A stretch of DNA of 20,000 nt from an uncultured virus (IMG/VR IMGVR_UViG_3300008120_007613) (lineage: Duplodnaviria; Heunggongvirae; Uroviricota; Caudoviricetes): IMG/VR virus record IMGVR_UViG_3300008120_007613, one strand, 5' to 3'. Positions 1,390 to 19,688 of the stretch are shown here, one piece after another (position 1 is the first letter of the stretch; the number at the start of each line of letters is the position of its first letter). A model generated the notes under the pieces. It ran no database searches, had not been told where the DNA came from, and was given only the letters and a program-made list of their open reading frames with translations. Made by a program: the position numbers and the translations under genes.

Positions 1390-1390
1390 T

Positions 1391-2704
1391 ATGAAACAAT
1401 TAATAGTTATAAGCTGTCCTATTGACACATATTCTGGTTATGGTGCTCGCTCAAGAGATATTGTAAAAGCACTATTAAAAGTAGATAAATATGAGGTTAA
1501 AATATTACCTCAAAGATGGGGATCTACTCCGTTTGGATTCTTACAAGCAGATAATCCTGAGCATAAACAAATTTTAGATTGTCTTCTCCCACAACCCCAA
1601 CTCCCACGCCAACCAGATTGTTGGATTCAAATTACAGTACCAAATGAATTTCAACCTGTAGGAAAATTTAACATTGGAATTACAGCAGGTATTGAAACTA
1701 CAATATGTGATCCAAGTTGGTTAGAAGGGATTAATAGAATGAACTTAACATTAGTATCGTCCAACCACGCTAAACAAGTATTTGAACAATCTGCCTTTGA
1801 ACAACGTGATAAAGCTACTAACCAACTTGTAAAAACAGTTAAGTTAGAAAAACCAGTAGAGGTATTATTTGAAGGAGTTGATACTAGTATCTATCAAAAA
1901 TTAGATGCTATTAATGAAAGTGAAGTATGGGATGTATTAGATACAGTTGATGAAGACTTTAACTTCCTATTTGTAGGTCACTGGTTGCAAGGTGAAATTG
2001 GACAAGATAGAAAAGATGTAGGTATGTTAATTAAAACATTCCTTGAAACATTTAAAGGCAAAGGCAAAAAACCAGGCCTTATTCTTAAAACATCAGGTGG
2101 TACTTATTCTATTATGGACAAAGATAGTGTATTAGAAAAAATTAATAGTATTCGTGCTTCTATAGGTAATAATGATATTTTACCTAATATTTATCTATTG
2201 CATGGTGAATTAAGTGATGAAGAAGTAAATGAACTATATAATCACCCTAAAATAAAAGCACACGTTACCTTTACTAAAGGTGAAGGATATGGTCGCCCAT
2301 TAATTGAAGCATCAGTAAGCCAAAAACCAGTAATTGCTCCAAATTACAGTGGACATACTGATTTTCTTGATGCTGAAATGTCTACCTTATTATCAGGCCA
2401 AATAAGTAAAATTCATCCATCAGCAGTAGTAGAAAATATGTTACTTGCTGATTCAGGTTGGTTTACAGTTGATTATAAAATAGCAGCTGAAACACTTGAA
2501 GATGTTTATAAAAATTATAAAAAATATCTTGATGGTGCAAAACGTCAAGCATATAAATCACGTACTGAGTTTAGTTTAGAGAAAATGGCTGAAAAATTAA
2601 ATGCAATTATTGAGGAAAAAGTACCTAAACAAGTAGCACTAAAACTTCCTCAATTAAAGAAAATTGAATTGCCTAAACTTAAAAAAGCAGAAGATGACAA
2701 GTAA
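1391..2704 (+). CDS. GT-B (GT4-like) glycosyltransferase
   Basis: N-terminal SGYG motif, FLFVGHW...RKDV, and the GT4 E-x7-E signature EGYGRPLIEAS. Confidence 0.85.
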   Translation: MKQLIVISCPIDTYSGYGARSRDIVKALLKVDKYEVKILPQRWGSTPFGFLQADNPEHKQILDCLLPQPQLPRQPDCWIQITVPNEFQPVGKFNIGITAGIETTICDPSWLEGINRMNLTLVSSNHAKQVFEQSAFEQRDKATNQLVKTVKLEKPVEVLFEGVDTSIYQKLDAINESEVWDVLDTVDEDFNFLFVGHWLQGEIGQDRKDVGMLIKTFLETFKGKGKKPGLILKTSGGTYSIMDKDSVLEKINSIRASIGNNDILPNIYLLHGELSDEEVNELYNHPKIKAHVTFTKGEGYGRPLIEASVSQKPVIAPNYSGHTDFLDAEMSTLLSGQISKIHPSAVVENMLLADSGWFTVDYKIAAETLEDVYKNYKKYLDGAKRQAYKSRTEFSLEKMAEKLNAIIEEKVPKQVALKLPQLKKIELPKLKKAEDDK

Positions 2705-2870
2705 AGAATTCGTTATCTGGTTAAAAGGATTTGTTGCAGGTAGTAATAATTTCAATTTAACACCTGCAGGATGGGATGAAGTTAAAGAACAACTTAATAA
2801 AGTAAACGATAATTTATTTCCAGGATATACAACAACTACTACTTACGATAAATTAGACAGTAATGACTGA
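2694..2870 (+). CDS. small hypothetical protein (MTSKEFVIWLKGF...), 58 aa
   Basis: In-frame ATG at 2694 overlaps the end of the upstream gene and is preferred over 2664. The ORF fills the gap in the operon. Confidence 0.65.
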   Translation: MTSKEFVIWLKGFVAGSNNFNLTPAGWDEVKEQLNKVNDNLFPGYTTTTTYDKLDSND

Positions 2871-3255
2871 ACAATTAATCATATGCCCTAGATGTGGTTC
2901 AAATGCTTGCCATGAGGCATCAAACGAAAAATTCACTATGTGGAGTTGCTTTGGATGTGGATTTACATCTAACTCTACAATGACTGACGAACATGCTCCT
3001 AAAGCAGAAGAAACACTACCTGAATTATATAAGGCATTAAAATTTAAAGATGAAAAAGGATACCACTGGTATCCAATTGCTTTAACATTTGATGATAAAT
3101 CAATGGTGTTTGCCGAAGGTAGATCTACTGAGGACTGGAAATGGTCAGCAGTACAAGCCAAAGAAGGCAAACCAGATATGACAACTAAACAAGAATTTGA
3201 AGAGCGTGACTTTATGGAAGCGCTTGATTATGTAGGTTATTTTAATCAAAAGTAA
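2863..3255 (+). CDS. zinc-ribbon hypothetical protein
   Basis: CPRC...CFGC Cys pairs at the N-terminus; coupled to both neighbours. Confidence 0.7.
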   Translation: MTEQLIICPRCGSNACHEASNEKFTMWSCFGCGFTSNSTMTDEHAPKAEETLPELYKALKFKDEKGYHWYPIALTFDDKSMVFAEGRSTEDWKWSAVQAKEGKPDMTTKQEFEERDFMEALDYVGYFNQK

Positions 3256-3256
3256 T

Positions 3257-3883
3257 ATGTCTACAATTAGTTTTGCAATTACAGCATGGAACGAACATGT
3301 TGAACTAGAACGTTTATTAGACCAACTTGTAACCATTATCAAACCAGGAGATGAAATAATGGTTCAACTAGATAATACAGCTACAGACGAAGTTAAAAAA
3401 GTAGCTGGTAAATATAATGTTGGTCAAAAATTTGAATACCATAGAATATATCATTCATTAAATGGTGACTTTGCATCATTTAAAAATAATGTTAAAGCAC
3501 ATTGTACACGTGATTGGGTATTCTTTATTGATGCTGATGAATATCTAAGTGATGGTTTAGCTGAAAATATCCATAGCGTATTAGATATGAATAAAGGTTT
3601 AGTAGATCTAATTGCCGTACCTAGAATTAACACAGTTGAAGGACTAACCCGTGATCATATTGATAAATGGCGTTGGTTTGTAGATGATAATGGTTGGGTT
3701 AATTATCCAGATTATCAAACGCGTATCTGCGCTAATAAAAAGGAAATAAAGTGGGCTAATAAAGTACACGAGCGTCTTACAGGTTGGAAGACAATAGCAA
3801 ATTTACCTGAAGGATATGATTTAATTCATCCTAAAACAATTGATAGACAAGAAAAACAAAACAATTTTTATAATACATTATGA
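3257..3883 (+). CDS. GT2 family glycosyltransferase (WaaE/KdtX-like)
   Basis: ISFAITAWNE start, FFIDADE DxD motif, and YPDYQTR...KVHE typical of WaaE-like GT2. Confidence 0.85.
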   Translation: MSTISFAITAWNEHVELERLLDQLVTIIKPGDEIMVQLDNTATDEVKKVAGKYNVGQKFEYHRIYHSLNGDFASFKNNVKAHCTRDWVFFIDADEYLSDGLAENIHSVLDMNKGLVDLIAVPRINTVEGLTRDHIDKWRWFVDDNGWVNYPDYQTRICANKKEIKWANKVHERLTGWKTIANLPEGYDLIHPKTIDRQEKQNNFYNTL

Positions 3884-4908
3884 AAACAGCGTTAGTATTA
3901 GGGGCAGGTGGGTTTATTGGCTCACACCTCGTTAAACGATTAAAATCAGAAGGATTTTGGGTTCGTGGTGTTGATTTAAAACACCCTGAATTTGAACCAA
4001 CAGCAGCTGATGATTTTATTATCGGTGATTTAAGAGATCCTAGAATAGTAAAAAACGTTATGCTTCTAGAATCTAATAATGGTGAATTTCCACTTGAATA
4101 TTCTTATAGCTCACCTCGTCCATTTGTTCAACAAATGCAATGGGATGAAGTATATCAGTTAGCAGCAGATATGGGTGGTGCTGGTTATATTTTTACAGGT
4201 GAAAATGATGCTAATGTAATGCACAACTCAGCTATGATTAATTTAAATGTAGCTAAAGAAGCAGTAGAACAAAAAGTAAAACGTATATTCTATAGTTCAT
4301 CTGCTTGTATGTATCCTGAACATAACCAATTAGATCCAAACAATCCTAACTGTGAAGAATCAAGTGCATACCCAGCAAACCCAGATTCAGAATATGGTTG
4401 GGAAAAACTATTCAGTGAGCGTATGTTCTTAGCATTTGCTAGAAATTATGGTTTACAAGTTCGTATTGCTCGTTTTCACAATATATTCGGTCCACAAGGT
4501 ACTTGGAAAGGTGGTAAAGAAAAAGCACCAGCAGCAATGTGTAGAAAAGTAGCCGAAACACCAGATGGTGGAGTAATTGAAGTATGGGGTGATGGTAAAC
4601 AAACCCGTTCATTCCTATATGTTGATGAATGTGTTGAAGGTATATTACGTTTAACTCGCTCTGATTTTGAAGGACCAGTTAATATTGGATCTGAAGAAAT
4701 GATTGCTATTAATGATTTAGCTAAGATGGCTATTGATATTAGTGGTAAAAATATTACTATTAAAAATATTCCTGGACCAACTGGAGTTAGAGGTAGGAAT
4801 TCAGACAATAAACTAATTCAAGAAAAATTAGGTTGGGCTCCAAATTATCCGTTAATTAATGGAATGAGTAAAACATTTGAATGGATTAATAAACAAGTAA
4901 ATGGCTAG
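3880..4908 (+). CDS. NAD-dependent epimerase, GDP-mannose 3,5-epimerase (GME)-like
   Basis: GAGGFIG, LAADMGGAGYI, YSSSACMYPE (catalytic Cys), YGWEK (YxxxK) and EKAPAAMCRK match the GME subfamily of extended SDRs. Confidence 0.85.
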   Translation: MKTALVLGAGGFIGSHLVKRLKSEGFWVRGVDLKHPEFEPTAADDFIIGDLRDPRIVKNVMLLESNNGEFPLEYSYSSPRPFVQQMQWDEVYQLAADMGGAGYIFTGENDANVMHNSAMINLNVAKEAVEQKVKRIFYSSSACMYPEHNQLDPNNPNCEESSAYPANPDSEYGWEKLFSERMFLAFARNYGLQVRIARFHNIFGPQGTWKGGKEKAPAAMCRKVAETPDGGVIEVWGDGKQTRSFLYVDECVEGILRLTRSDFEGPVNIGSEEMIAINDLAKMAIDISGKNITIKNIPGPTGVRGRNSDNKLIQEKLGWAPNYPLINGMSKTFEWINKQVNG

Positions 4909-5974
4909 TATATCAATTATAGGAGTAGGTAAACTAGGATTATGTTTAGCTCTTAATTTAGAGAAAAAAGGACATAATGTTATAGGAGTAGATGTATTTA
5001 AAAGTTACATTCAATCTTTGAATGATAAAACATTTACTACAAGTGAACCAAGTGTAAACGAATATTTAGCTGAATCTAAAATATCATTTACTACTGATTT
5101 AGAACAAGCACTTCAAAATGACATATTATTTGTAGTTGTAAGAACACCATCTACTCCTGAATGGAAATATGATCATACAGATATTGAAAATATAGCTGAT
5201 AAATTAATTTCATTTGGTAGACAATCAACCAGAAAAGACTTAATTATTAATTGTACTACATTTCCAGGATATTGTGATACACTACAAGAAAAATTAAAAG
5301 AATATAACTATTACATTTCATACAATCCAGAATTTATTGCTCAAGGTACTATTATTAAGGATCAAGTAATGTGTGATAATGTATTGATTGGTGAGGCAGA
5401 TGAATATGCTGGTGAATTAATTACTAGTATTTATAAATCAATGGTTGAATCTGATCCAATATATAATAGAATGTCTAGAACTGAAGCTGAATTAACTAAA
5501 TTAGCTGTTAATTGCTTCTTAACAACTAAAATTAGCTACGCTAACATGGTTGGAGATATTACTAGTAGATTAGGATGTGATGCTGATAGAGTATTAAAAG
5601 CTATTGGAACTGATTCAAGAATAGGCAACAAATATCTCAAACCAGGATTTGGATTTGGTGGACCATGTTTTCCTAGAGATAACAGAGCATTAGCTAAATG
5701 TGGTGAAGAGGTAGGCATTGATGCTGTTATTTCTAGAGCAACAGATGAAATGAATGAAAAACACCTTCAATATCAAATTGAAGACTTTATAAAAAATAAT
5801 CCTGATAAAAACAAAGCAGTTGAAATTGACTTTATTACTTATAAAAAAGAAAGTACAATTATAGAGGAATCTCAACAACTTAAATTTGCTCAAAAATTAA
5901 AAGAATTAGGATACAATATTCAACTATTAGATCAAAGACAAGAAGTACTAGATCAAATAAAAGATATATTATGA
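4901..5974 (+). CDS. UDP-glucose/GDP-mannose dehydrogenase family protein
   Basis: GVGKLG Rossmann motif, YNPEF, KLAVNCFLTTKISYAN, and GFGGPCFPRD with the catalytic Cys. Confidence 0.9.
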   Translation: MASISIIGVGKLGLCLALNLEKKGHNVIGVDVFKSYIQSLNDKTFTTSEPSVNEYLAESKISFTTDLEQALQNDILFVVVRTPSTPEWKYDHTDIENIADKLISFGRQSTRKDLIINCTTFPGYCDTLQEKLKEYNYYISYNPEFIAQGTIIKDQVMCDNVLIGEADEYAGELITSIYKSMVESDPIYNRMSRTEAELTKLAVNCFLTTKISYANMVGDITSRLGCDADRVLKAIGTDSRIGNKYLKPGFGFGGPCFPRDNRALAKCGEEVGIDAVISRATDEMNEKHLQYQIEDFIKNNPDKNKAVEIDFITYKKESTIIEESQQLKFAQKLKELGYNIQLLDQRQEVLDQIKDIL

Positions 5975-6711
5975 CATTAAATCAAAAAATATCTAATTGG
6001 TTATTAGATTATCTTCATATTAACAGATTAGATTGCTTTATAATAGGCATTAGTGGTGGAATTGATTCAGCATTAACATCAACATTATGTGCCCAAACAG
6101 GTAGAAAAACTATAGTTGTAAGTATGCCTATACATCAACAACCTGATCAATTATCTAGAGCACATAATCATATTGAATGGTTAAAATCAAAATATCCAAA
6201 TGTATCATCATTTGAATATGATTTAACAGAAACATTTGAAACATTTAAAAAATTATTTCCTGTAGAAAATAGACTAGCATTAGCTAATTCACGTTCACGT
6301 TTAAGAATGACTACATTATATCAAATATCTACTGCATATAAAGGAATAGTAGTAGGCACAGGCAATAAAGTAGAGGATTTTGGAGTTGGATTTTTTACTA
6401 AATATGGTGATGGTGGGGTTGATATTTCTCCAATCGGTGATTTAAATAAAACTGAGGTAAGACAAATGGCTCGTGAATTAGGAATAATTGAAGAAATATT
6501 AATAGCGGCTCCAACAGACGGATTGTGGGATGATAATAGAACAGATGAGGGTCAACTTGGTGCTACATATGAAGAATTAGAATGGGCTATGGAATATGAA
6601 GGGTCATTAATTGGATTAGAAAAAAGGCAACGTGAAGTATTAGATATATATAAAACACTTCATATTAAAAATACTCATAAGATGGCTATGCCACCTATAT
6701 TTACAAAATGA
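5971..6711 (+). CDS. nadE: NH3-dependent NAD+ synthetase
   Basis: SGGIDS PP-loop, NSRSRLR, GTGNKVE, GFFTKYGDG, PTDGLW, DEGQLG and C-terminal HK. No glutaminase domain. Confidence 0.95.
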   Translation: MTLNQKISNWLLDYLHINRLDCFIIGISGGIDSALTSTLCAQTGRKTIVVSMPIHQQPDQLSRAHNHIEWLKSKYPNVSSFEYDLTETFETFKKLFPVENRLALANSRSRLRMTTLYQISTAYKGIVVGTGNKVEDFGVGFFTKYGDGGVDISPIGDLNKTEVRQMARELGIIEEILIAAPTDGLWDDNRTDEGQLGATYEELEWAMEYEGSLIGLEKRQREVLDIYKTLHIKNTHKMAMPPIFTK

Positions 6712-7520
6712 TAACTAATTTAGAAATAGGATATAATGGAAGACTAGGCAACCAAATATTCCAGTATGCAGCATGTTATGCTACTGCTAAAAGATTAGGT
6801 GTTAAATTTATTATTCCTGAAAAAAATATAGATAATATTAAACAGGATGGATGTTATGATTTTTCAAATAATCAATGGATTCCATATAATTTTAGAATGT
6901 ATGATTGTTTTGAAATAACAGCACCTAAAGGTGAAGTTAACATAAATAATGTATTTCAAGAACCCCATTTCCATTATACTGAAGCATTCAATAACATCCA
7001 AGATAATACATCAGTACAAGGATATTATCAGTCAGAAAAATATTTTATTGATTGTAAAGAAGATATTTTAAAAGAATTTACATTTAAAGAAAATATACTT
7101 ACTGAAGCAAAATCAATAATTAATTCTATTAACAATAAAGAAATAGTAGCTATACATGTTAGAAGGGGAGATAATGTGGTTAATCCTAATTTTCCCACTA
7201 TTGGTATGGACTATATTCAAGAAGCACTTAATATATTCTCAGATAAAGAATATAATTTCTTAATTATATCAGACGATGTTCCTTATTGTAAAGAGGTATT
7301 TCCTGAAGGAGTATATTTTAGTGAGGGCACAGATGATTTAGTAGATTTATGCCTAATGTCATTATCGGATCATAATATAATATCTAATAGTTCATTTTCA
7401 TGGTGGGGTGCTTATTTAAATCCTAATAAAAGTAAAAAAGTAATAGCACCTAGTAACTGGTTTAAAGATAAATCTATTAATACGGGTGATTTAATACCTA
7501 ATAACTGGATAATAATATGA
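6708..7520 (+). CDS. GT11 alpha-1,2-fucosyltransferase-like glycosyltransferase
   Basis: GRLGNQIFQYA, GYYQSEKYF, HVRRGD and SNSSFSWWGAYL are the canonical GT11 motifs. Confidence 0.92.
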   Translation: MITNLEIGYNGRLGNQIFQYAACYATAKRLGVKFIIPEKNIDNIKQDGCYDFSNNQWIPYNFRMYDCFEITAPKGEVNINNVFQEPHFHYTEAFNNIQDNTSVQGYYQSEKYFIDCKEDILKEFTFKENILTEAKSIINSINNKEIVAIHVRRGDNVVNPNFPTIGMDYIQEALNIFSDKEYNFLIISDDVPYCKEVFPEGVYFSEGTDDLVDLCLMSLSDHNIISNSSFSWWGAYLNPNKSKKVIAPSNWFKDKSINTGDLIPNNWIII

Positions 7521-7732
7521 ATTTAAAATCAACAATAAATTCTCAGGGAGAAGTAGTAACTCAAATAATTCATTTTGTAGGTGATGTAAAAAGAACATAT
7601 CATGGGATAATATCAACTTCTATTAAACAAGGTCAGTTTACTAAAATGGAATGCACTGATGGAACAATGATAATGGTAAATGATAAAAATGTTCTATGCA
7701 TAGAAGTATTTCCCGAAAAAAAGAAACAATAA
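7517..7732 (+). CDS. hypothetical protein, 71 aa
   Basis: ATGA overlap upstream and TAATG overlap downstream indicate translational coupling. No motif recognised. Confidence 0.7.
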   Translation: MNLKSTINSQGEVVTQIIHFVGDVKRTYHGIISTSIKQGQFTKMECTDGTMIMVNDKNVLCIEVFPEKKKQ

Positions 7733-8769
7733 TGAAAATATTAGTTACAGGAGCAGGTGGATTAATTGGATCTGAAGCAGTAGATTACTATTGTAGTCAA
7801 GGGCATGATGTATATGGAATTGAAAATAATCAAAGAGCAATATTCTTCGGCCCTAAAGGAAGCACATTATCCCGATTACACCAATTAGAATCAAAATATT
7901 CTAATTTTAGAAACTTTAATGTAGATATTAGAAATAAAATAGATATATTTAATTTATTTGAACAAATAAAATTTGATGTAGCAATTCATACTGCTGCTCA
8001 ACCATCACATGATAAAGCAGCATCAATTCCATTTGATGACTTTGAAACCAATGCTAATGGTACTTTACATTTATTAGAGGCAGTTAGACAAACAAATAAA
8101 GACTGTGTATTCATTCATATGTCTACAAATAAAGTATATGGTGACAAACCAAATACATTAAATTTAGTAGAATTAGATACACGATATGATTATGCTGATG
8201 TTGAATATCAAAATGGTATAAATGAAAATTTCTCAATAGATCAATCCAAACACAGTTTATTTGGAGCTAGTAAAGTAGCAGCAGATATATTAGTTCAGGA
8301 ATATGGTCGTTATTTTGGAATCCCATCATGTGTTTTAAGAGGTGGGTGTTTAACTGGTGAAAACCATAGTGGAGTAGAATTACATGGCTTCTTAAATTAT
8401 TTAGTTAAATGTAATGCCCAAAATATCAAATACAACGTATTTGGCTATAAAGGTAAACAAGTAAGAGATAATATTCATTCCTCAGATGTAGTACAATTTA
8501 TGGACCTATTCATAGCAAATCCACGTATTGCTGAAGTGTATAATATAGGTGGTGGTAAGGATAATTCATGTTCAATATTTGAAGCATTTAATTTAGCTGA
8601 ACAAATATCAGGCATTAAAATGATCTATGAGTATGTAGATGAGAACAGAATTGGTGATCATATCTGTTATTATAGTGATCTATCTAAAATGAAGGAACAT
8701 TACCCTGAATTTGGTATTACTAAAAATCTTAATTATATTATTGAAAACATCTATACAAAAACAAAATGA
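7732..8769 (+). CDS. NAD-dependent epimerase, CDP-paratose 2-epimerase (RfbE/Tyv)-like
   Basis: Start chosen at MKILVTGAGGLIG (7732). HTAAQPSHD, STNKVYG, FGASK and GKQVRD resemble the CDP-tyvelose epimerase subfamily. Confidence 0.8.
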   Translation: MKILVTGAGGLIGSEAVDYYCSQGHDVYGIENNQRAIFFGPKGSTLSRLHQLESKYSNFRNFNVDIRNKIDIFNLFEQIKFDVAIHTAAQPSHDKAASIPFDDFETNANGTLHLLEAVRQTNKDCVFIHMSTNKVYGDKPNTLNLVELDTRYDYADVEYQNGINENFSIDQSKHSLFGASKVAADILVQEYGRYFGIPSCVLRGGCLTGENHSGVELHGFLNYLVKCNAQNIKYNVFGYKGKQVRDNIHSSDVVQFMDLFIANPRIAEVYNIGGGKDNSCSIFEAFNLAEQISGIKMIYEYVDENRIGDHICYYSDLSKMKEHYPEFGITKNLNYIIENIYTKTK

Positions 8770-9293
8770 GCGAAAGATACCTACATATAGGGTGTGGTAA
8801 TGTTATACTACCAAAACCATTTGAAAATCTAGATACTAGACCTTTAGAAGGAGTAGATCATGTTTCTGAAGCATTTCCCCTTCCATTTGAAGATAATATA
8901 TTTGATTTGGTTTATTCATCTCATGTTTTAGAACACTTTGAAAAAGCCAAAACACAAGAAATAGTAAACGAATGGGTCCGTATACTAAAACCAGGAGGTA
9001 TCATTAGATTATCTGTTCCATCACTTGAAAATCTTATTAAAATATATCAAGCATCAGGTGATATGGAATATATTATAGGTCCATTAATGGGTGGTCAAAC
9101 ATATCCTCAAAATTATCATTATAATATGTTTGATACAAAACGATTAACAGAATATCTTAAAAAAGCAGGATGTGAGGCTGTTCATCCTTGGGATTATAGA
9201 AGAACATCTCACAGTAAGTATTTTGATTTTTCACAAGCAATTACATGGGAGATTCCAATTAGTTTAAACTTAGAAGCTAGAAAATGCTTGTAA
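8766..9293 (+). CDS. class I SAM-dependent methyltransferase (type 11-like)
   Basis: LHIGCG motif I, FDLVYSSHVLEH and RILKPGG. Confidence 0.88.
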   Translation: MSERYLHIGCGNVILPKPFENLDTRPLEGVDHVSEAFPLPFEDNIFDLVYSSHVLEHFEKAKTQEIVNEWVRILKPGGIIRLSVPSLENLIKIYQASGDMEYIIGPLMGGQTYPQNYHYNMFDTKRLTEYLKKAGCEAVHPWDYRRTSHSKYFDFSQAITWEIPISLNLEARKCL

Positions 9294-10093
9294 AAAGTAA
9301 CTTTATACCTTCTGAAATATTTGATAGGTTTTTATTAGATGATTCTATTTTAAAGGATAAACCTATTACTATATTTAATGACTATACTCCTACTATTGAA
9401 GAACTACAAGTAAATCCTTATAACTTTTTAATACTAAACGAACCAAATGAATTATTTGGTCTTCATGATTGGGCAATTAATAATCAAGATGTATTTAGTT
9501 GTATATTTGCATGGAGTGAAGAAGTATTAAATAAGTGTTCTCATTCTGTTTTATTTCCTTTTGGAATGTCATCAATGTGGGAAACTCCTGACTTATATAA
9601 TAATATTGATCAAAAAGATAAACAATTAAAAGTATTTTTCGTTTGTGGTCCTAAAAATCAAATAGAAGGACATAAGATGAGACATAAAATATATAATCAA
9701 AAAAATCAAATTAGTATACTTAATGAATGGATATTTTCATGTCCCATAGAGGAAAAAAATAAAAATTTTAATGATTGTATGTTTCATGTTGCCGTTGAAA
9801 ATACTCAACAATTAAATCTATTTACAGAAAAAATAATAGATGCATTTTTAACTAAAACTATTCCTATTTACAGAGGTTGTTCTAATATTGAAAAATATTT
9901 TGATGAACGTGGTATTATAAAATTTAATAATGAAGAAGAATTGATTAAAATTGTTAATTCATTAACTGAAGAAGACTATTGGAATAAACAGCAATATATA
10001 GAATATAATTATCAAAAAGCAATTGAATGGAGTAATTATTTTGGAAGATTAGTAAATATTTTAAAAAACATAGTAGAATCAAATAACATATGA
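9284..10093 (+). CDS. GT10 (alpha-1,3/4-fucosyltransferase-like) glycosyltransferase
   Basis: FHVAVENT...FTEKIIDAFLTKTIPIYRG matches the GT10 fucosyltransferase motif. Confidence 0.8.
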   Translation: MLVKSNFIPSEIFDRFLLDDSILKDKPITIFNDYTPTIEELQVNPYNFLILNEPNELFGLHDWAINNQDVFSCIFAWSEEVLNKCSHSVLFPFGMSSMWETPDLYNNIDQKDKQLKVFFVCGPKNQIEGHKMRHKIYNQKNQISILNEWIFSCPIEEKNKNFNDCMFHVAVENTQQLNLFTEKIIDAFLTKTIPIYRGCSNIEKYFDERGIIKFNNEEELIKIVNSLTEEDYWNKQQYIEYNYQKAIEWSNYFGRLVNILKNIVESNNI

Positions 10094-10809
10094 AAATAGG
10101 TATTATTTGTTTAGCTAATGGACCCTATTCTATTTTTATAGATAATCTGATTGATAGTTGTGAAGAAAAGTTATTAATTAAACATATCAAGGAATATTTT
10201 ATCATTACAGATAATGAATTTAATAATAGTATCAAAGAAAACGTTACTGTAATATATAAACAACGAAATGGATGGCCATTAGATTGTTTATTACGACCTC
10301 AATATTCTTATGAGTTAGAAGATAAGATTAAACATTTAGATTATGTTTATTTTTTTAATGCTAATATGTTTATATATAATGAAATAGGAGAAGAAATATT
10401 ACCTGATGAAAGTGAATTAATTGGGGTTGAACATGCTTGTTATACTCATAGAAACAATTTAATGTTTACTTATGATAGAAATCCGTTAACTAAAGCTTAC
10501 ATTCCCGAAGGAGAAGGAAAAATATACTATCAAGCTTGTTTATGGGGAGGTACATCTTCTGCCTTTATAAAATTAAGTAAAACTATACAAGAGTGGACTA
10601 ATGAAGATTTAAATAATAAAGTTGAACCAATATGGTTAGATGAGTCATATTTGAATAAATATTTTCTTATTAACCCACCAAAAATATTACATCCTTTATT
10701 TGCTTGGCCCACAAATATGCCTCTTTATTCAGATTCACCAGAAATTAAAATAATTCAATTACAAAAAAAAGACTATATTTCTGATGATAATTTTAGGTTT
10801 GTTAAATAA
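10090..10809 (+). CDS. GT6 family glycosyltransferase (ABO-like; NXN type)
   Basis: KIGIICLANGPY, YFFNAN (NXN in place of DXD), YDRNP...AYIP, YYQACLWGG and WLDESYLNKYF. Confidence 0.88.
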   Translation: MKIGIICLANGPYSIFIDNLIDSCEEKLLIKHIKEYFIITDNEFNNSIKENVTVIYKQRNGWPLDCLLRPQYSYELEDKIKHLDYVYFFNANMFIYNEIGEEILPDESELIGVEHACYTHRNNLMFTYDRNPLTKAYIPEGEGKIYYQACLWGGTSSAFIKLSKTIQEWTNEDLNNKVEPIWLDESYLNKYFLINPPKILHPLFAWPTNMPLYSDSPEIKIIQLQKKDYISDDNFRFVK

Positions 10810-10829
10810 AATTTATTATATTTAATATT

Positions 10830-12113
10830 ATGATTTTAAAAGATAATATAAGTTCCCTAGTAGGTAATCATGTAGCACCCTATATATACAATGCTAATAA
10901 CTTTGAACCAGGTAAAACATTTATATATTACTCTGGTCCATATTGGGATAATCGTGAAACAGAAGCTGCTATTGATTCATTTCTAAATGGGAAATGGATA
11001 ACTGCTGGAGAACGAGTTTATAAATTTGAAAACGCCTTTAGTAAAAGATTTAATACCAAATATTCCCATATGGTGAATTCAGGTTCATCAGCAAATTTAG
11101 TATTAATTGCTGCTCTTAAAAAACGATTCAATTGGCAAGATAATGATGAAATTATTGTATCGCCTGTTGGATTTGCAACTACTATTTCAGTATTATCACA
11201 AAACAGATTAAAACCAGTATTTGTAGACATTGAGTGGGATACTTTAAATTTTGATTTAAACCAAATTGAATCTAAAATTACATCAAGAACTAAAGGTATA
11301 TTTGTTTCTCCTGTATTAGGTAATCCTCCTAATATGGATAAATTGATCAAAATATGTTATAAATATAATTTAAAATTAATAGGAGATAATTGTGATAGCT
11401 TAGGTAGTAAATGGGATAACAAATATTTAAACGAATACTATGTAGCATACTCAAATTCATTTTATCCAGCACACCACATAAGCACAGGAGAAGGGGGAAT
11501 GGTATGTTCTGATGATGATAAGTTAAAACAATTATTTGTTAGTTTAAGCTGGTGGGGAAGGGATTGCTATTGTATAGGTTCAGCTAATTTGTTATCATGT
11601 GGTACCTGTGGTAATAGGTTTGATAAATGGCTTGAAAACTATGATGGAATAGTAGATCACAAGTATGTCTTTTCAGAAATGGGATATAATCTTAAACCAC
11701 TTGATTTACAGGGAGCTATTGGACTAATTCAATTAGATAAATTAGACGAAATCGAATCTAATAGAAAACGTTCTAAAGAAGTTATATCTAAAATATTCAC
11801 TGATAATGTTTCTGGTTTAAAAATACCTAAAACTTTATCTAAAGCAGATCCATGCTGGTTTGGTACGCCATTTATTTGTGAAGAAGAAGGATTAAAACAT
11901 AAATTAGTAGCTCATCTTGAAGCAAATAAAATTCAAACCAGAAATTATTTCGCTGGAAACATATTATTACACCCAGGATACTCTCATTTAGATGATTTCA
12001 AAAAATATCCTGAAGCAAATAAGGTATTAGATAGAGTATTCTTTATTGGGGCTGCTCCTCACTATAGAGAAAGTGTATTTCAATATATTAAAGAAGTAGT
12101 AAAAAAGTTTTAA
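10830..12113 (+). CDS. rfbH: CDP-4-keto-6-deoxyglucose 3-dehydratase (E1, RfbH/DdhC)-like, DegT/DnrJ family
   Basis: NSGSSANL, DNCDSLGS, SFYPAHHISTGEGG (His in place of the Schiff-base Lys), GRDCYC...CG Fe-S motif, DHKY and GYNLKP. Confidence 0.85.
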   Translation: MILKDNISSLVGNHVAPYIYNANNFEPGKTFIYYSGPYWDNRETEAAIDSFLNGKWITAGERVYKFENAFSKRFNTKYSHMVNSGSSANLVLIAALKKRFNWQDNDEIIVSPVGFATTISVLSQNRLKPVFVDIEWDTLNFDLNQIESKITSRTKGIFVSPVLGNPPNMDKLIKICYKYNLKLIGDNCDSLGSKWDNKYLNEYYVAYSNSFYPAHHISTGEGGMVCSDDDKLKQLFVSLSWWGRDCYCIGSANLLSCGTCGNRFDKWLENYDGIVDHKYVFSEMGYNLKPLDLQGAIGLIQLDKLDEIESNRKRSKEVISKIFTDNVSGLKIPKTLSKADPCWFGTPFICEEEGLKHKLVAHLEANKIQTRNYFAGNILLHPGYSHLDDFKKYPEANKVLDRVFFIGAAPHYRESVFQYIKEVVKKF

Positions 12114-12114
12114 T

Positions 12115-12864
12115 ATGAATGTTTTACTATTAGGAGAAAAAGGCTACTTAGGTTCATACTTGTATGAAAAACTAAAAGTAGATACTTTAGAAACTAGAGA
12201 ATTATATAATAATGGTAAAATATACAATTATGTTATTAACTGTATAGGTAAACCTAACTTAGAATATTGTGAAATCCATAAAGAAGAAACAGACTATTCA
12301 AATAGAGATGTAATAAAAGATATTAAAAAATATTATCCTACTAGTAAAATAATTAATTTCTCATCATATTATGTTTATAATGATGATGGGATGTGTAATG
12401 AAGAATCAAAAGTAACATATAAATATAATTATACTAAACAAAAATTAGAAGGAGAACAGTTAATAAATAATGGAGTAAGTTTTAGAGTTGGTAAATTATT
12501 TGGTCATCCTTTAAATAACCAACAAAAACTTACTGAGTACATATTAAATAATGATAATTTAACTTTAGATAACGTTTATTTTAATCCTACAAGTTTAAAT
12601 CAAGTTCTTCAAGTAATTAAATGGGAGTTGGAAAATAATAAACTTAATGGTATATTTAATTTATCTAATAATGGTGTAACAACACATTATGAATATGGTG
12701 TGTTTATAAATAATATATTACAAACTAATAAAAACATAGTTCAAACTAATAAATTAGAGAGACAATTTGATAATTATGGAAAGTTTTTAATGTCATGTAA
12801 TAAACTAAAACAATTTGTACCTTTAGTTTCTTGGAAAGAAGATATGATGGATTATTTAAAATGA
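12115..12864 (+). CDS. RmlD-like NAD(P)-dependent nucleotide-sugar 4-reductase
   Basis: GEKGYLG, INCIGKPNLEYCE, FSS and YTKQK (YxxxK). Confidence 0.7.
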   Translation: MNVLLLGEKGYLGSYLYEKLKVDTLETRELYNNGKIYNYVINCIGKPNLEYCEIHKEETDYSNRDVIKDIKKYYPTSKIINFSSYYVYNDDGMCNEESKVTYKYNYTKQKLEGEQLINNGVSFRVGKLFGHPLNNQQKLTEYILNNDNLTLDNVYFNPTSLNQVLQVIKWELENNKLNGIFNLSNNGVTTHYEYGVFINNILQTNKNIVQTNKLERQFDNYGKFLMSCNKLKQFVPLVSWKEDMMDYLK

Positions 12865-13742
12865 CTACTCAGATAATAATACACTTAATGCCCCATGAAA
12901 TTGATTGGTTTGAATGGCAAGCCAAACAATTAAAGGCAGGAAGCTGCTATATAGAAGATAAAGTAATAATTGATGTTACTTTAAATCTAAATTTAGTTGA
13001 TTGGGAAAACTCACAAATTTCTAAACATTATTTTATAGATAAGTTTAATCAAATTAAACAGTTGTTTGATTGGTGTGAAGTAATATTTGAAATAGATGAA
13101 AATAATAATTGCTTAGGTATTGATGATAAAAGAAGAAATAGTATAAGAAATTACAACCCAGATAATTTTATATACTTAGATTCTGATATTATATTTAAGA
13201 CGGAAACATTAGCATTATTAATTAATAGTGCTAAAACAATTAATGATGAATATTACATTATATCACCCCAAACACCAAAACTATGGGATTATACTTGGGA
13301 TGTATTAGTAAATAATGTATATTCAAGTCAACAATATGGGTTTGAAAAAACAATTGATCCCTACTCTATATTAAACACTGATTATGATGAAATATCATTA
13401 TCACCAATTAATGTATTTAAGTTTGGTGGAGGATGGTTTAATCTAATATCAGCAAAACTACTAAAATTTACTGATATACCAGATACATTTGGCTCATATG
13501 GTATAGATGATACTTATGTAATGTATTGCTGTGATATAATGAAGCAAAAACATCTAAAACCACAACAATATGTTATAAATAATTTAGTAGTAGCTGAAAA
13601 CTACAAATACAGAGATAATCCTTATTCTCAGTATTTAAAAATTATTAATAAAAAAGATGAATATAGAATACAAGCTGAAAATAATTTTCAAAATGAATTA
13701 AATAAATTCTATGATAAAATTTATAATAACAACAACAATTAA
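12861..13742 (+). CDS. putative GT-A fold glycosyltransferase
   Basis: ATG at 12861 overlaps the upstream stop region. YLDSDII DxD motif and GSYGIDD-like acidic motif; cluster context. Confidence 0.55.
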   Translation: MTTQIIIHLMPHEIDWFEWQAKQLKAGSCYIEDKVIIDVTLNLNLVDWENSQISKHYFIDKFNQIKQLFDWCEVIFEIDENNNCLGIDDKRRNSIRNYNPDNFIYLDSDIIFKTETLALLINSAKTINDEYYIISPQTPKLWDYTWDVLVNNVYSSQQYGFEKTIDPYSILNTDYDEISLSPINVFKFGGGWFNLISAKLLKFTDIPDTFGSYGIDDTYVMYCCDIMKQKHLKPQQYVINNLVVAENYKYRDNPYSQYLKIINKKDEYRIQAENNFQNELNKFYDKIYNNNNN

Positions 13743-14634
13743 TACTCCAACAGTAGCAACTCATAAATTTTGTGAAATTGCTAAACGTGATAATTGGATA
13801 TTTGTTGTGGTAGGTGATACTAAAACACCACATGAAGAATATGAAAACTTACCGTATTGCCACTACTTACACCCAGATAAACAAGCTGAATTATACCCTG
13901 AATTAAGTGAGGCTATCGGATGGAAAACAATCCAACGTCGTAATATTGGGTTCGTTTATGCTTATAATCATGGGGCTGAAATAGTAGCTACAGTTGATGA
14001 TGATAATATTCCTTATGATAATTGGGGAACTGATTTATATATTAGTAAGGAAGTAGAAGTAGATTATTGGACATCTGAAAACCATGTATTTGATCCATTA
14101 TCAGTAACTAATTATCCTCATCTATGGCATAGAGGTTATCCAATTGATTATTTACAAGTTAGAGATAGAGTTACTTATTTAGGCAAGAAAAAAGTTACAC
14201 CATTAATTCAAGCCGACTTATGGGATGGAGATCCTGATATTGATGCAATGTGCAGATTAACATTTAAACCAGTATGTAAATTTAATACCACAGGACCGTT
14301 TGCCTCAAGTAAACCATCTCCATTTAATTCACAAAATACATTTATCCATAGAGATGCTTTAAAACACTATGCAGTATGGCCTTATGTAGGCAGAATGGAT
14401 GATATTTGGGGTGGCTATTATACCCAAGAAATGATTGGACCTGATAAGTTAATTTATAATAGGGCATCCGTTTATCAAGATAGAAATGTTCAAGATCTAA
14501 TTGTTAATTTAGAAAAGGAAATTATTGGATACAGAAATACGCTTGACTTTACAAAATCATCAAGTACAGCAGCTTCATATGTCCCTGAAGAAACAAGAAA
14601 ATTCTTAAACATTTATTTTAAACATCTTAATTAA
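13711..14634 (+). CDS. STELLO/RGP (GT75, DUF288)-like protein; possible nucleotide-sugar mutase or glycosyltransferase
   Basis: VVVGDTKTP, RRNIGFVYAY, VDDDN, RGYP, GDPDIDA, FNSQNT and RMDDIW. Confidence 0.8.
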   Translation: MIKFIITTTINTPTVATHKFCEIAKRDNWIFVVVGDTKTPHEEYENLPYCHYLHPDKQAELYPELSEAIGWKTIQRRNIGFVYAYNHGAEIVATVDDDNIPYDNWGTDLYISKEVEVDYWTSENHVFDPLSVTNYPHLWHRGYPIDYLQVRDRVTYLGKKKVTPLIQADLWDGDPDIDAMCRLTFKPVCKFNTTGPFASSKPSPFNSQNTFIHRDALKHYAVWPYVGRMDDIWGGYYTQEMIGPDKLIYNRASVYQDRNVQDLIVNLEKEIIGYRNTLDFTKSSSTAASYVPEETRKFLNIYFKHLN

Positions 14635-15503
14635 TGAAAATATCAGCAGTTATAGTATCTAGAAATGATGGATACGGAGGACATTTAAATGAAAGAGCAA
14701 CATATTGCTTTAATTCAGCAATTGATACTTATGATGAAGTAATTTATGTAGATTGGAACTCACCAACACATAGTTTACTTTATGATATTAAAGACAATAT
14801 TCAATTTAAAGGTAACTTTAAACATATTGTAATATCACCTGAAATTGCTTCAGTACTAACTAATGGAGATCCTAATGCTCAGAAATGCTGTGAAGTATTA
14901 GGTCGCAATATTGGTTTAAGACGTGCTACAGGTGACTATCTAGTATCAACTAATATTGATATTATTCACCCAAAACGTGATCAATTAGAAGAAACAATCG
15001 CTCAACTAGATATTAGATCGTTTTATACAATTAGTAGAAGACATACTGATTGGGACATTATTAAAGCATTCCATAATGATGAAATACCATTTTCAGAATG
15101 GAAATCATTAAGAGAATATCTAATAACCAACTCAGAAGAACGTCACTTTGAAGAAACAACTGTAAGCGGAGATAACTATAGTATTATTAATTGTTGTGGA
15201 GATTACCAAATTGCCTTTAGAGAAATATGGAATGAAATTCGTGGATTTGAAGAAGCATTAATATATTCACTGTATGCTGATACTAATGTCCAAAAGAAAG
15301 CACTAATGCATGGTTTTGGATTAAAAGCAATATACAACCCAGCCTTATTTCATATTGAACATGGTCGTGGGGGTGGTGGATTTTTAGATGGTATTAATAA
15401 AGTAACTAATGATCCATATCGTGCTATAGTATACCAAAATAAAACAGAAAATAGCGATTCATGGGGATTCGGAGATACAGAAATTGAATTTGAAATCTTT
15501 TAA
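14634..15503 (+). CDS. putative GT-A/GT2-like glycosyltransferase
   Basis: SRNDGYGG, YVDWNS, RNIGLRRATGDYLVSTNIDI, GFEE and FHIEH. Confidence 0.65.
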   Translation: MKISAVIVSRNDGYGGHLNERATYCFNSAIDTYDEVIYVDWNSPTHSLLYDIKDNIQFKGNFKHIVISPEIASVLTNGDPNAQKCCEVLGRNIGLRRATGDYLVSTNIDIIHPKRDQLEETIAQLDIRSFYTISRRHTDWDIIKAFHNDEIPFSEWKSLREYLITNSEERHFEETTVSGDNYSIINCCGDYQIAFREIWNEIRGFEEALIYSLYADTNVQKKALMHGFGLKAIYNPALFHIEHGRGGGGFLDGINKVTNDPYRAIVYQNKTENSDSWGFGDTEIEFEIF

Positions 15504-18659: not shown

Positions 18660-18733
18660 CGGGATGTAGTACAGTCCGGTAGTATGCTTGGTTTGGGACC
18701 AAGAGGTCGTAGGTTCGAATCCTGCCATCCCGA
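18660..18733 (+). tRNA. tRNA-Pro(TGG)
   Basis: Acceptor CGGGATG/CATCCCG; anticodon arm CTTGG-TT TGG GA-CCAAG; T arm GTAGG-TTCGAAT-CCTGC. No encoded CCA. Confidence 0.95.
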
Positions 18734-18738
18734 CATAT

Positions 18739-18810
18739 GCTCGGTTCGTCTAATGGTTAGGACATCACCCTTTCACGGTGGCGATACGGGTTCGACTCCC
18801 GTACCGAGTA
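18739..18810 (+). tRNA. tRNA-Glu(TTC)
   Basis: Acceptor GCTCGGT/ACCGAGT; TCACC-CT TTC AC-GGTGG; ACGGG-TTCGACT-CCCGT. Confidence 0.95.
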
Positions 18811-18811
18811 C

Positions 18812-18885
18812 AGTAGAATAGCTCAATTGGTTAGAGCAGCCGTCTGATACGCGGCAGGTTGATAGTTCGAGTCTATCTTCTACTA
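18812..18885 (+). tRNA. tRNA-Ile(GAT)
   Basis: Acceptor AGTAGAA/TTCTACT; GCCGT-CT GAT AC-GCGGC; GATAG-TTCGAGT-CTATC. Confidence 0.92.
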
Positions 18886-18919
18886 CCTGAAGACGGTGCT
18901 AACAAGCATTGACGCCACC

Positions 18920-19011
18920 GAGGTTAATTGGAATTTAGGCAGGTGCCTATACCGGTTAGAAAAGCCAATTATAAAAGCAGTTGTCCACGCACCCATCTAC
19001 TGCTTCCCTCA
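18920..19011 (+). ncRNA. candidate structured ncRNA (multi-helix junction) within the tRNA array
   Basis: GAGG(18920-23)/CCTC(19007-10) closes two arms. One is TAATTGG(18925-31)/CCAATTA(18965-71) with an inner TAGGC-AGGT-GCCTA hairpin; the other is AAGCAGT(18975-81)/ACTGCTT(18999-19005). Confidence 0.45.
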
Positions 19012-19013
19012 CC

Positions 19014-19109
19014 TGACCCTTAGCTCAGTAGGTTAGAGCAAGCTTCAGTACTGGCCTTGAAAAAGCTGGGAACAAAGCCGTGCCACTGGTTCGATTCCAG
19101 TAGGGTCAG
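19014..19109 (+). ncRNA. tRNA-like gene with a 22-nt-extended anticodon arm (identity undetermined)
   Basis: Perfect acceptor TGACCCT/AGGGTCA, D arm GCTC-AGTAGGTTA-GAGC, T arm ACTGG-TTCGATT-CCAGT and a 5-nt variable loop. There are 29 nt instead of 7 between AGCTT and AAGCC. Confidence 0.75.
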
Positions 19110-19116
19110 CAAATTT

Positions 19117-19187
19117 GGAGACTTGGCAGAGCGGCTGAATGCGGCGGTCTTGAAAACCGTTATACGTGAATAGCGTATCTGGGGTTC
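19117..19187 (+). pseudogene. tRNA-Ser(TGA) 5' portion, truncated in the T-loop
   Basis: GGAGACT, D arm, GCGGT-CT TGA AA-ACCGT, long variable arm ATACG/CGTAT and TGGGG-TTC; then no 3' T-stem or acceptor strand. Confidence 0.8.
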
Positions 19188-19227
19188 CATAATCATTAGG
19201 TCACAGGTTCAAATCCTGTAGGGTCAA
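19188..19227 (+). pseudogene. 3' half of a CAT-anticodon tRNA (Met or Ile2)
   Basis: CAT AA TCATT AGGTC ACAGG-TTCAAAT-CCTGT AGGGTCA A. The 5' half is absent and the fragment is fused directly to the Ser fragment. Confidence 0.75.
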
Positions 19228-19235
19228 CTGACTTA

Positions 19236-19307
19236 GGTCCTGTAGTTCAACGGATAGAACAATTGCCTTCTAAGCAATGGATACAAGTTCGATTCTTGTC
19301 GGGACTA
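19236..19307 (+). tRNA. tRNA-Arg(TCT)
   Basis: Acceptor GGTCCTG/CGGGACT; ATTGC-CT TCT AA-GCAAT; ACAAG-TTCGATT-CTTGT. Confidence 0.95.
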
Positions 19308-19311
19308 CAAA

Positions 19312-19343
19312 TTTGGTTTAGGCAAAATAAAATTGTATATTTG
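19312..19343 (+). promoter_or_regulatory. Bacteroidota-type sigma promoter (TTTG-N20-TATATTTG)
   Basis: Exact match to the -33 TTTG / -7 TAnnTTTG consensus, 15 nt upstream of ATG 19359. Confidence 0.75.
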
Positions 19344-19358
19344 ATGTAAATAAAATTT

Positions 19359-19583
19359 ATGTTTTGGACTTATTATTTAGTTTGTTTAGCTTATTGCTTA
19401 ATTATGTCTGTTAAAAGATGGAATAGAGATGTTATGGCTGGTGGATTAGGTATTAATCCAGGATTAGACACTTTAGGTATACTTATAATGTGTTGGATAT
19501 TAGCACCCGTTGATATTACTTTAACTTGGATTCGTATCTATAAAGATGCTGAAGAAGCTAGACGAAACCAAACACGATTATAA
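19359..19583 (+). CDS. small membrane protein (two hydrophobic segments), 74 aa
   Basis: Hydrophobic stretches YYLVCLAYCLIMSV and LGILIMCWILAPVDITL; has its own promoter. Confidence 0.7.
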   Translation: MFWTYYLVCLAYCLIMSVKRWNRDVMAGGLGINPGLDTLGILIMCWILAPVDITLTWIRIYKDAEEARRNQTRL

Positions 19584-19589
19584 AATTAT

Positions 19590-19675
19590 ACCTGAGTGTT
19601 GAAATAGGTAGACAAGAGAGACTTAAAATCTCTTGGGCAGTAATGCCCGTGCCGGTTCGACTCCGGCCTCAGGTA
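19590..19675 (+). tRNA. tRNA-Leu(TAA)
   Basis: Acceptor ACCTGAG/CTCAGGT; AGAGA-CT TAA AA-TCTCT; variable arm GGGCA-GTAA-TGCCC; GCCGG-TTCGACT-CCGGC. Confidence 0.95.
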
Positions 19676-19688
19676 CATAGTTATTTAC

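Follow-up and report, generated by a model that had tools for sequence, protein, structure and literature searches.

What is the tRNA-like RNA encoded at 19014..19110 (+) of the window, the whole stretch of 20,000 nucleotides of viral DNA analysed here, and what might it do with 29 nt in the place of the 7-nt anticodon loop? The locus forms part of a tRNA array in a T4-like phage from freshwater and stands downstream of the genes for tRNA-Pro(UGG), tRNA-Glu(UUC) and tRNA-Ile(GAU) (18660..18887, +) and upstream of those for tRNA-Arg(UCU) and tRNA-Leu(UAA) (19236..19676, +). The gene comprises 96 nt to the discriminator G19109, plus an encoded C74, which is also present in 61 of the 65 parsed array genes. 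The CCA end is not encoded, as is also the case in the neighbouring tRNAs.

The 5′ part of the RNA (19014..19040, +) contains the 5′ acceptor strand, U8-A9, a class I D arm with A14, G15 and G18-G19 (4-bp stem, 19023-26/19036-39), and A26. The acceptor stem (19014-19020/19102-19108) forms seven of seven pairs, and the 5′ strand of the proximal anticodon stem (19041..19045, +) pairs with 19075-19079 in four of five positions, with A27·C43 mismatched. The residues 19046-19074 then replace the anticodon loop in the following manner. The 5′ strand of a sarcin-ricin-type internal loop, C-AGUA (19046..19050, +), is followed by a distal hairpin (19051..19069, +), which consists of an invariant closing C-G pair, a hypervariable stem and a 9-nt loop containing CTTGAAA, and by the 3′ strand of the internal loop, GAA-C plus A38 (19070..19074, +). 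The bulged G of the motif is predicted at 19048, corresponding to tRNA base 34. The remaining residues (19075..19109, +) form the 3′ proximal stem, a 5-nt variable loop, the T arm (19085-19101), the 3′ acceptor strand and the discriminator G. A preceding sequence-only reading had described the acceptor, D and T arms, the 29-nt replacement, the identity of CTTGAAA (at 19056) to the loop of the neighbouring tRNA-Ser (at 19149), and the acceptor strand AGGGTCA common to this RNA and the CAT-tRNA fragment, all of which are exactly where it placed them; the 7-mer occurs seven times in the window. The invariant AGUAC/GGAA, and thus the sarcin-ricin-type loop, had been missed. The eighth acceptor pair of that reading can indeed form between C19013 and G19109, but a C-1:G73 pair is found in one clade only, and we dropped the special 8-bp acceptor. 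U-1/A73 occurs in 31 of the 65 parsed array tRNA-shaped genes, among which family members and some mis-parsed starts are counted.

Neither annotation nor folding energy singles out this RNA. ARAGORN calls the window locus “tRNA-???”, and Rfam returns no family, with nothing at E<=1. The distal hairpin at 19051-19069 that had been seen in the insert is present; however, minimum free energy folding gives a z-score of -1.49 for the whole RNA and 0.18 for the arm alone, and the arm is thus no stabler than its shuffles. Since folding does not distinguish the arm, the support for the RNA comes from conservation rather than energy.

In order to follow this conservation, we gathered at least 18 distinct homologues, whose sources are large, distant phages and a 47-kb phage unrelated to them. 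The alignment A1 contains 18 distinct sequences, 10 of them from the clade of the window, with the locus L485 left out. Seven viral loci were found by a pattern that fixes only the tRNA body and another, L011, was reached via its neighbouring gene; all eight of these motif-blind loci have the long arm and the AGUA/GAA motif, and in no case does a normal tRNA take its place. Scans anchored on the motif brought in members whose acceptor stems differ, and because 10 of the 18 sequences were found with patterns demanding both AGUA and GAA, the invariance of these two elements is partly by construction. The closing C-G pair, the Y and M flanks and the spacing are conserved though the main search patterns did not fix them. 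With the true motif pattern, 20 of 95 loci were tRNA-shaped, 16 of these being family members, and the other 75 were dropped; the permuted motif gave three tRNA-shaped loci among the 120 matches listed, all of them ordinary intron-type tRNAs. From a second motif scan, 111 of the 117 matches listed were dropped as not tRNA-shaped. Four L086-type loci (acceptor 6/7, no class I D stem, AGUAU/AGAA) were also dropped. A further scan yielded, apart from L485, 67 loci that belong to a different tRNA-like family with AGUA in a base-paired state, the degenerate candidate L448 and chance matches, all of which were left out.

The alignment reveals how the tRNA body is maintained. The acceptor stem is 100% paired with double changes in six of its seven pairs, and the T stem is 100% paired with double changes in three of its five (n=18 for both, with a shuffle control that ignores relatedness). 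The D stem is 98.6% paired (n=18), while the proximal anticodon stem is paired in 67.8% of its cells, with A·C at 27:43 in 12 of the 18 sequences. The elbow core is conserved as strongly as the arm motif. These conservation figures are to be read with 10 of the 18 sequences coming from one clade and with covariation controls that do not remove relatedness. The model R1, built from the window RNA, gives the window a score of 103.9 bits, and six other members score 44-52 bits on RF00005, the only Rfam family matched. In comparison with the close relative L004, the body is identical at 78 of 79 positions and the tip at 10 of 20. The sequence-only reading had proposed a covariation test in the extended arm; the acceptor, D and T stems covary, and the arm tip is hypervariable. 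The homologues keep the long arm and their stems covary, which supports its proposal of a non-decoding tRNA mimic under selection, and the covarying stems, together with a motif invariant across distant and unrelated phages, bear out its argument from pairing against random decay. The window feature is a real, conserved and selected RNA.

Does the long arm also exist outside this assembly? Three other runs, two of RNA and one of DNA, gave contigs that cross the long arm with a different tip, and the differences cluster at 19053-19068, with none in AGUAC or GGAA among those listed. A fourth run covers the tip, with no difference among those listed, and may be the source sample; X2 is a possible source sample, and contigs of RNA runs cannot show ends, strand or level or prove transcription. 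Since long-arm homologues occur in other assemblies and the contigs of three other runs span the arm, the window RNA is not an assembly artefact. At the adjacent locus, a fused remnant (19117..19227, +) joins the 5′ part of a tRNA-Ser(UGA) to the 3′ half of a CAU tRNA. The fusion point lies within the T loop, with about 57 bases missing relative to the relative L003, where the Ser and CAU tRNA genes are both intact. In runs X1 and X2, the loose ends at 19187 run on as intact Ser, and the fusion at 19117-19227 is therefore a local deletion or a mis-join.

The conserved element of the arm is the 5x4 internal loop Y-AGUA/GAA-M, whose closing pair is C-G in all 18 sequences. AGUA and GAA are each invariant (18/18). 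The base before AGUA is a pyrimidine in 17 of the 18 sequences, the base after GAA is C or A in 17 of the 18, and the distance from base 26 to AGUA is 6 or 7 nt throughout the family. As far as primary sequence can define it, an AGUA/GAA 5x4 loop between helices is a sarcin-ricin (bulged-G) motif: PMC1865062 gives AGUA/GAA as the sequence of this motif, which is also named loop E, and according to PMC8450098 such motifs are 4x5 internal loops, in which the flanking pairs may be CC, UC or CA, and AGUA/GAA forms a stable recurrent module. The arm motif would accordingly be expected to adopt the bulged-G fold, with its non-Watson-Crick pairs and S-turn.

The hairpin above the motif follows quite different rules. 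It is 13-24 nt long, in 16 of the 18 sequences it is better paired than its shuffled versions (p<=0.05), and its tip loops are 3 to 12 nt long with no common sequence. Among the 10 close relatives, its mean identity is 0.56, as compared to 0.93/0.90 for the body. The anticodon-like CTTGAAA loop that had attracted attention is thus identical to that of tRNA-Ser, as claimed, but it is a feature of the window copy only (9-nt loop) and not the conserved part, because unrelated sequences replace it even in the closest relatives (tip 10/20 with L004). Outside the alignment, the locus L485 (521-666, -), on one viral contig, has a Leu-type body with a long variable arm and carries AGUAC/GGAA in its anticodon arm. 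This recurrence on a Leu-type body suggests that the arm is a module that appears able to sit on different tRNA bodies.

Can such an RNA decode? The arm loop is 23-34 nt long in the family, A occupies position 33 or the next, and there is no 7-nt loop with U33 and a purine at 37. The window RNA almost certainly cannot translate. More generally, the RNA should not decode, because both a U33 turn and a conserved triplet are missing from it, and an arm about one helical turn too long would likewise keep it from decoding. The acceptor stems comprise eight different sequences among the 18, with the discriminator G in 10 and A in 8, which argues against a single conserved amino-acid identity and also weakens the earlier suggestion of a synthetase sponge or aminoacyl donor.

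Next, we examined the genomic setting. Besides the tRNA array, the window encodes ClpP, a DUF4494 protein and a block of sugar-modification genes; within 1-15503, there are at least 12 glycosyltransferase/nucleotide-sugar genes and an NAD-synthase-like gene, partly unlike those of G001. The spacer upstream of the RNA (18886-19013) contains small hairpins and has no Rfam match; most close relatives retain its first 35 bases immediately 5′ of the RNA, and over its whole 128 bases it is identical to the spacer of L004 at 121 of 130 positions. A promoter scan stayed at chance level (10 found, 10.9 expected). Genome-level comparisons used the relatives’ records G001-G011. The closest complete relative, G001, has 168,946 bp with terminal repeats; its ORFs match 18 of the 35 window ORFs, and its DUF4494 protein is 96% identical. 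Pfam searches, which covered 136 of 168 ORFs in G001 and 50 of 50 in the 47-kb G004, found T4-type capsid, portal, sheath and terminase genes in G001, identifying it by gene content as a large tailed phage, and one protein with a Por secretion C-terminal domain. This domain and DUF4494 together point to a Bacteroidota host. G001 (L395, L396, L397) also encodes QueC, PTPS/QueD and GTP cyclohydrolase I of the 7-deazaguanine pathway, GroES/GroEL, two gp23-type capsid genes and a tmRNA. The best-matching sequencing runs are mostly from freshwater.

The RNA is found, in one copy each, in G001, G002, G003 and G004 (four of the four records searched). G001, G002 (294 kb) and G003 are distant from one another, with terminases 25-26% identical to that of G001, and only six G001 ORFs match both G002 and G003, including the terminase, the sheath and an AAA ATPase. 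Of the 73 ORFs of G004 (47 kb, 63% GC), none matches an ORF of the three large phages, and since G004 nevertheless bears the RNA, no phage-encoded partner is evident and we dropped this candidate. Among 32 DUF4494-linked loci, only the four closest carry the RNA within 3 kb, and its pattern is absent from five of five near-complete, more distant relatives. The GTDB genomes gave no match; a looser pattern gave 13 matches there, none of which was tRNA-shaped in register. A BLAST search against cultured phages returned only 24-25-nt D-arm matches and no cultured carrier. This patchy, phage-only distribution is as expected for an accessory conflict gene.

Several other tRNA-like RNAs came to light. 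RNAs of about 160 nt, which have G73, a GUC-containing loop on a short arm, and a very long structured variable arm whose core is conserved, occur in relatives without the window-type RNA (L015 3445-3603, L018, L019, L021, L022 3911-4070, L033, L035 1877-2034 and L038). Others have a common Leu-type acceptor and D arm with wholly variable middle arms (L013 3294-3397, L014, L017, L020, L024, L031, L032, L035 1438-1553 and L409). L437 (~585-690) and 66 similar loci combine a Leu-type tRNA body with a long nested arm and form a separate, abundant family, with a possible pseudoknot and one compensatory change (L463).

What, then, does the RNA do? Judging from its conservation and distribution, it probably serves to bind a host protein: the fixed register of the motif, the lack of a common phage protein and the patchy, phage-only distribution together suggest a host ligand in a conflict setting. 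With confidence a little short of even, we favour a natural non-decoding “tRNA scaffold” that shows the motif to this protein; its most likely task would be to decoy a defence enzyme that attacks RNA. The tRNA body would be the processing and stability scaffold of a phage non-coding RNA. Co-transcribed with the tRNA array, it would be cut by the host RNase P, trimmed at its 3′ end, furnished with CCA and folded into the L shape; RNase P processing and CCA addition are suggested by analogy with engineered tRNA scaffolds, which E. coli treats as tRNA with a foreign RNA placed at the anticodon stem (PMC3753655). The sequences show a sarcin-ricin-type 5x4 loop whose distance to the core is fixed and whose cap is a hairpin free to vary. 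This loop would be presented to the host protein as a non-cleavable decoy for a nuclease or modifier of tRNA or the sarcin-ricin loop, which could help to keep translation running during infection.

It is possible, though doubtful, that the RNA is specifically a non-cleavable mimic of the ribosomal sarcin-ricin loop (SRL), placed on a tRNA scaffold and titrating host toxins or defence effectors aimed at the 23S loop. Bacterial SRL nucleases exist, with Bacteroidota homologues, and they cut at A2662-G2663, within the tetraloop; the available text of the SRLase1 paper that describes them does not mention phage (bioRxiv 10.64898/2026.09.18.752725). Whether known SRL toxins would recognize the phage RNA is uncertain, because the GAGA tetraloop, the site of their action, is absent from it. 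The missing tetraloop cuts both ways for the decoy reading. If the SRL mimic is true, then it represents an RNA-only counter-defence and points to undescribed SRL-targeting anti-phage systems in Bacteroidota.

AGUA/GAA is, on the other hand, found recurrently as a structural motif, and its role may be no more than to stiffen the arm. We weighed a general tRNA-body decoy, in which the acceptor and elbow act as a sponge for attackers of tRNA ends or T/D loops and the motif only stiffens and protects the arm, which keeps the RNA off the ribosome. The elbow core is indeed as well conserved as the motif, and the motif is a stable recurrent module (PMC8450098). Arms without an anticodon, of designs other than this one, are also common in phages (25 of the 120 matches listed in an unbiased long-arm scan of viral loci), and relatives without the window-type RNA have other tRNA-like RNAs. 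Nevertheless, a purely structural role requires no fixed register, invariant C-G pair or Y and M flanks, and the same motif recurs on the Leu-type body of L485. We thus consider a body decoy conceivable but unlikely.

It is improbable that the RNA is instead a modulator of the translation machinery, binding EF-Tu, EF-G, a synthetase or the ribosome and tuning host translation for the phage. The intact T and acceptor stems would suit such a role, as would the tmRNA and tRNA sets that the carrier phages also bear, while the acceptor identity is not conserved (eight sequences, G or A discriminator). In the ribosomal loop, the GAGA tetraloop contacts GTPases, and in a tRNA, the anticodon-arm end lies far from the EF-Tu grip. 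The phage RNA lacks this GTPase-contacting tetraloop and carries the motif far from the EF-Tu-held end, and these features argue against a modulator, even though the motif belongs to the factor-binding loop of the 23S rRNA (bioRxiv 10.64898/2026.09.18.752725).

The tip could also be the bait, with the variable loop mimicking anticodon loops, or the GUA within AGUA mimicking tRNA-Tyr, in order to decoy an anticodon nuclease. A decoy role has been suggested for a phage tRNA-Tyr (PMC13096335), GUA stands at positions 34-36 in 14 of the 18 sequences, and several close relatives have 8-10-nt CU...AA loops. The tip diverges more than the spacer (10/20 and 121/130 identical to L004, respectively), which could reflect diversifying selection, but relaxed constraint and recombination explain this variation equally well. 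Moreover, the loops range from 3 to 12 nt without a common sequence, base 33 is A rather than U, and G002 and G003 also encode a normal tRNA-Tyr(GUA), making a tip decoy quite improbable.

The intron alternative of the sequence-only reading, a short-intron tRNA gene spliced to a normal tRNA, fares much worse. Short introns at 37/38 are common in viral tRNA genes: the long-arm scan listed 59 canonical cases among 120 matches (anticodons GUA 31, UUU 11, GUU 6, UAU 5 and UGU 4), and the motif stands in register in none of the 120 listed. The short-intron loci fall within L252-L370, some of them on large contigs not labelled as giant viruses (for example, L281 and L320). However, a Y32-U33-R37 loop can be produced by any excision in only one of the 18 family members, L161, and not in the window copy; L161 could yield a canonical Thr-type loop, so its family membership is uncertain. 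ARAGORN with introns allowed, the check proposed earlier, assigns the inconsistent identities Ser, Arg, Leu or Pro to close homologues. The enzymes of a splicing route were likewise sought: RNA-ligase PF09414 matches two of five records (G002 and G003), but neither G004 nor G001, the closest relative with a complete genome, has a match, and the tRNA endonuclease PF01974 (0/5 records), RtcB (0/4) and T4 ligase 1 PF09511 (0/5, with silent controls) were not found. Inspection of the window copy revealed no bulge-helix-bulge, and none of the 15 run-contig joints listed, of 22, falls inside the arm. Splicing to a normal tRNA is thus very unlikely. A decayed pseudogene or assembly artefact, to which the adjacent Ser/CAU fusion (local damage or mis-assembly in the window contig) and a 5′ part resembling the same-clade CAU tRNA (15/17 bases in G001) might point, is barely tenable in view of the contradicting homologue set, with its covarying stems and invariant motif in distant and unrelated phages, and the long-arm contigs in independent runs.

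The RNA family offers a sharp experimental handle: a small invariant motif is set against a variable tip and exchangeable acceptor stems, and a few point mutants can therefore separate the hypotheses. If the RNA acts as a decoy, then phages would possess in it an RNA-based device against host defence, and it could serve as bait in the search for new immune enzymes that attack ribosomes or tRNAs.

How does this RNA relate to known systems? Other phage tRNA arrays likewise contain annotated stable RNAs to which no function is assigned, namely RNA1, RNA2 and RNA3 of T5 (NC_005859, misc_RNA) and rnaC and rnaD of T4 (NC_000866). An over-long anticodon arm beside acceptor, D and T arms is also seen in T5 RNA1 and RNA2, but these two have long variable arms, unlike the class I body of the present family, and T4 rnaC contains an AGUAG...GAA stretch in another architecture. 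No in-register AGUAC/GGAA and no R1 match at E<=1e-6 was found in T5 RNA1-3 or T4 rnaC/rnaD. Rfam 15 has no family for the present variant, and literature searches found no description of it, although subscription papers or supplements may list such RNAs; the main text of PMC7162821 contains neither “intron” nor “tRNA-like”. The kind is therefore already known but unexplained, as T4 rnaC/rnaD and T5 RNA1/2 are still without an assigned function, and the variant with the sarcin-ricin-type arm is new to Rfam 15. Bacterial Y RNA (YrlA) has permuted ends, a Ro60-binding stem and a linked Ro60/TROVE gene. We rejected it as a relative: the phage RNA ends at its acceptor stem and has no Y RNA match in Rfam, and TROVE is found in none of five records.

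The class I tRNA (RF00005) shares with the phage RNA the acceptor, the D arm, the 5-nt variable loop, the T arm and the encoded C74, while the phage RNA lacks U33, the 7-nt loop and a conserved anticodon. Annotation tools mis-call such phage RNAs as tRNAs of random identity. Viral and archaeal/eukaryotic-type short-intron tRNA genes likewise carry an extra anticodon-arm hairpin of 15-27 nt, but they keep Y32-U33-anticodon-R37 (59 of the 120 matches listed), as compared to one of 18 in the phage family. The closest likeness to the arm motif is in helix 95 of the 23S rRNA, where the sarcin-ricin motif is also a 5x4 loop, Y-AGUA / GA(A/C)-C/A, with a distal C-G closing pair; E. coli 23S 2653-2657/2664-2667 has this same layout, with the C-G pair bearing the GAGA tetraloop. 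All 18 phage RNAs have the 13-24-nt variable hairpin where this tetraloop would stand, and it is a tRNA body rather than the ribosome that bears the motif. Finally, the engineered “tRNA scaffold” (PMC3753655) also keeps the acceptor, D and T arms and uses the anticodon stem-loop as the site of cargo insertion. The engineered scaffold is a laboratory construct, whereas the cargo of the phage RNA is a natural conserved motif, and the phage RNA is thereby its natural counterpart.
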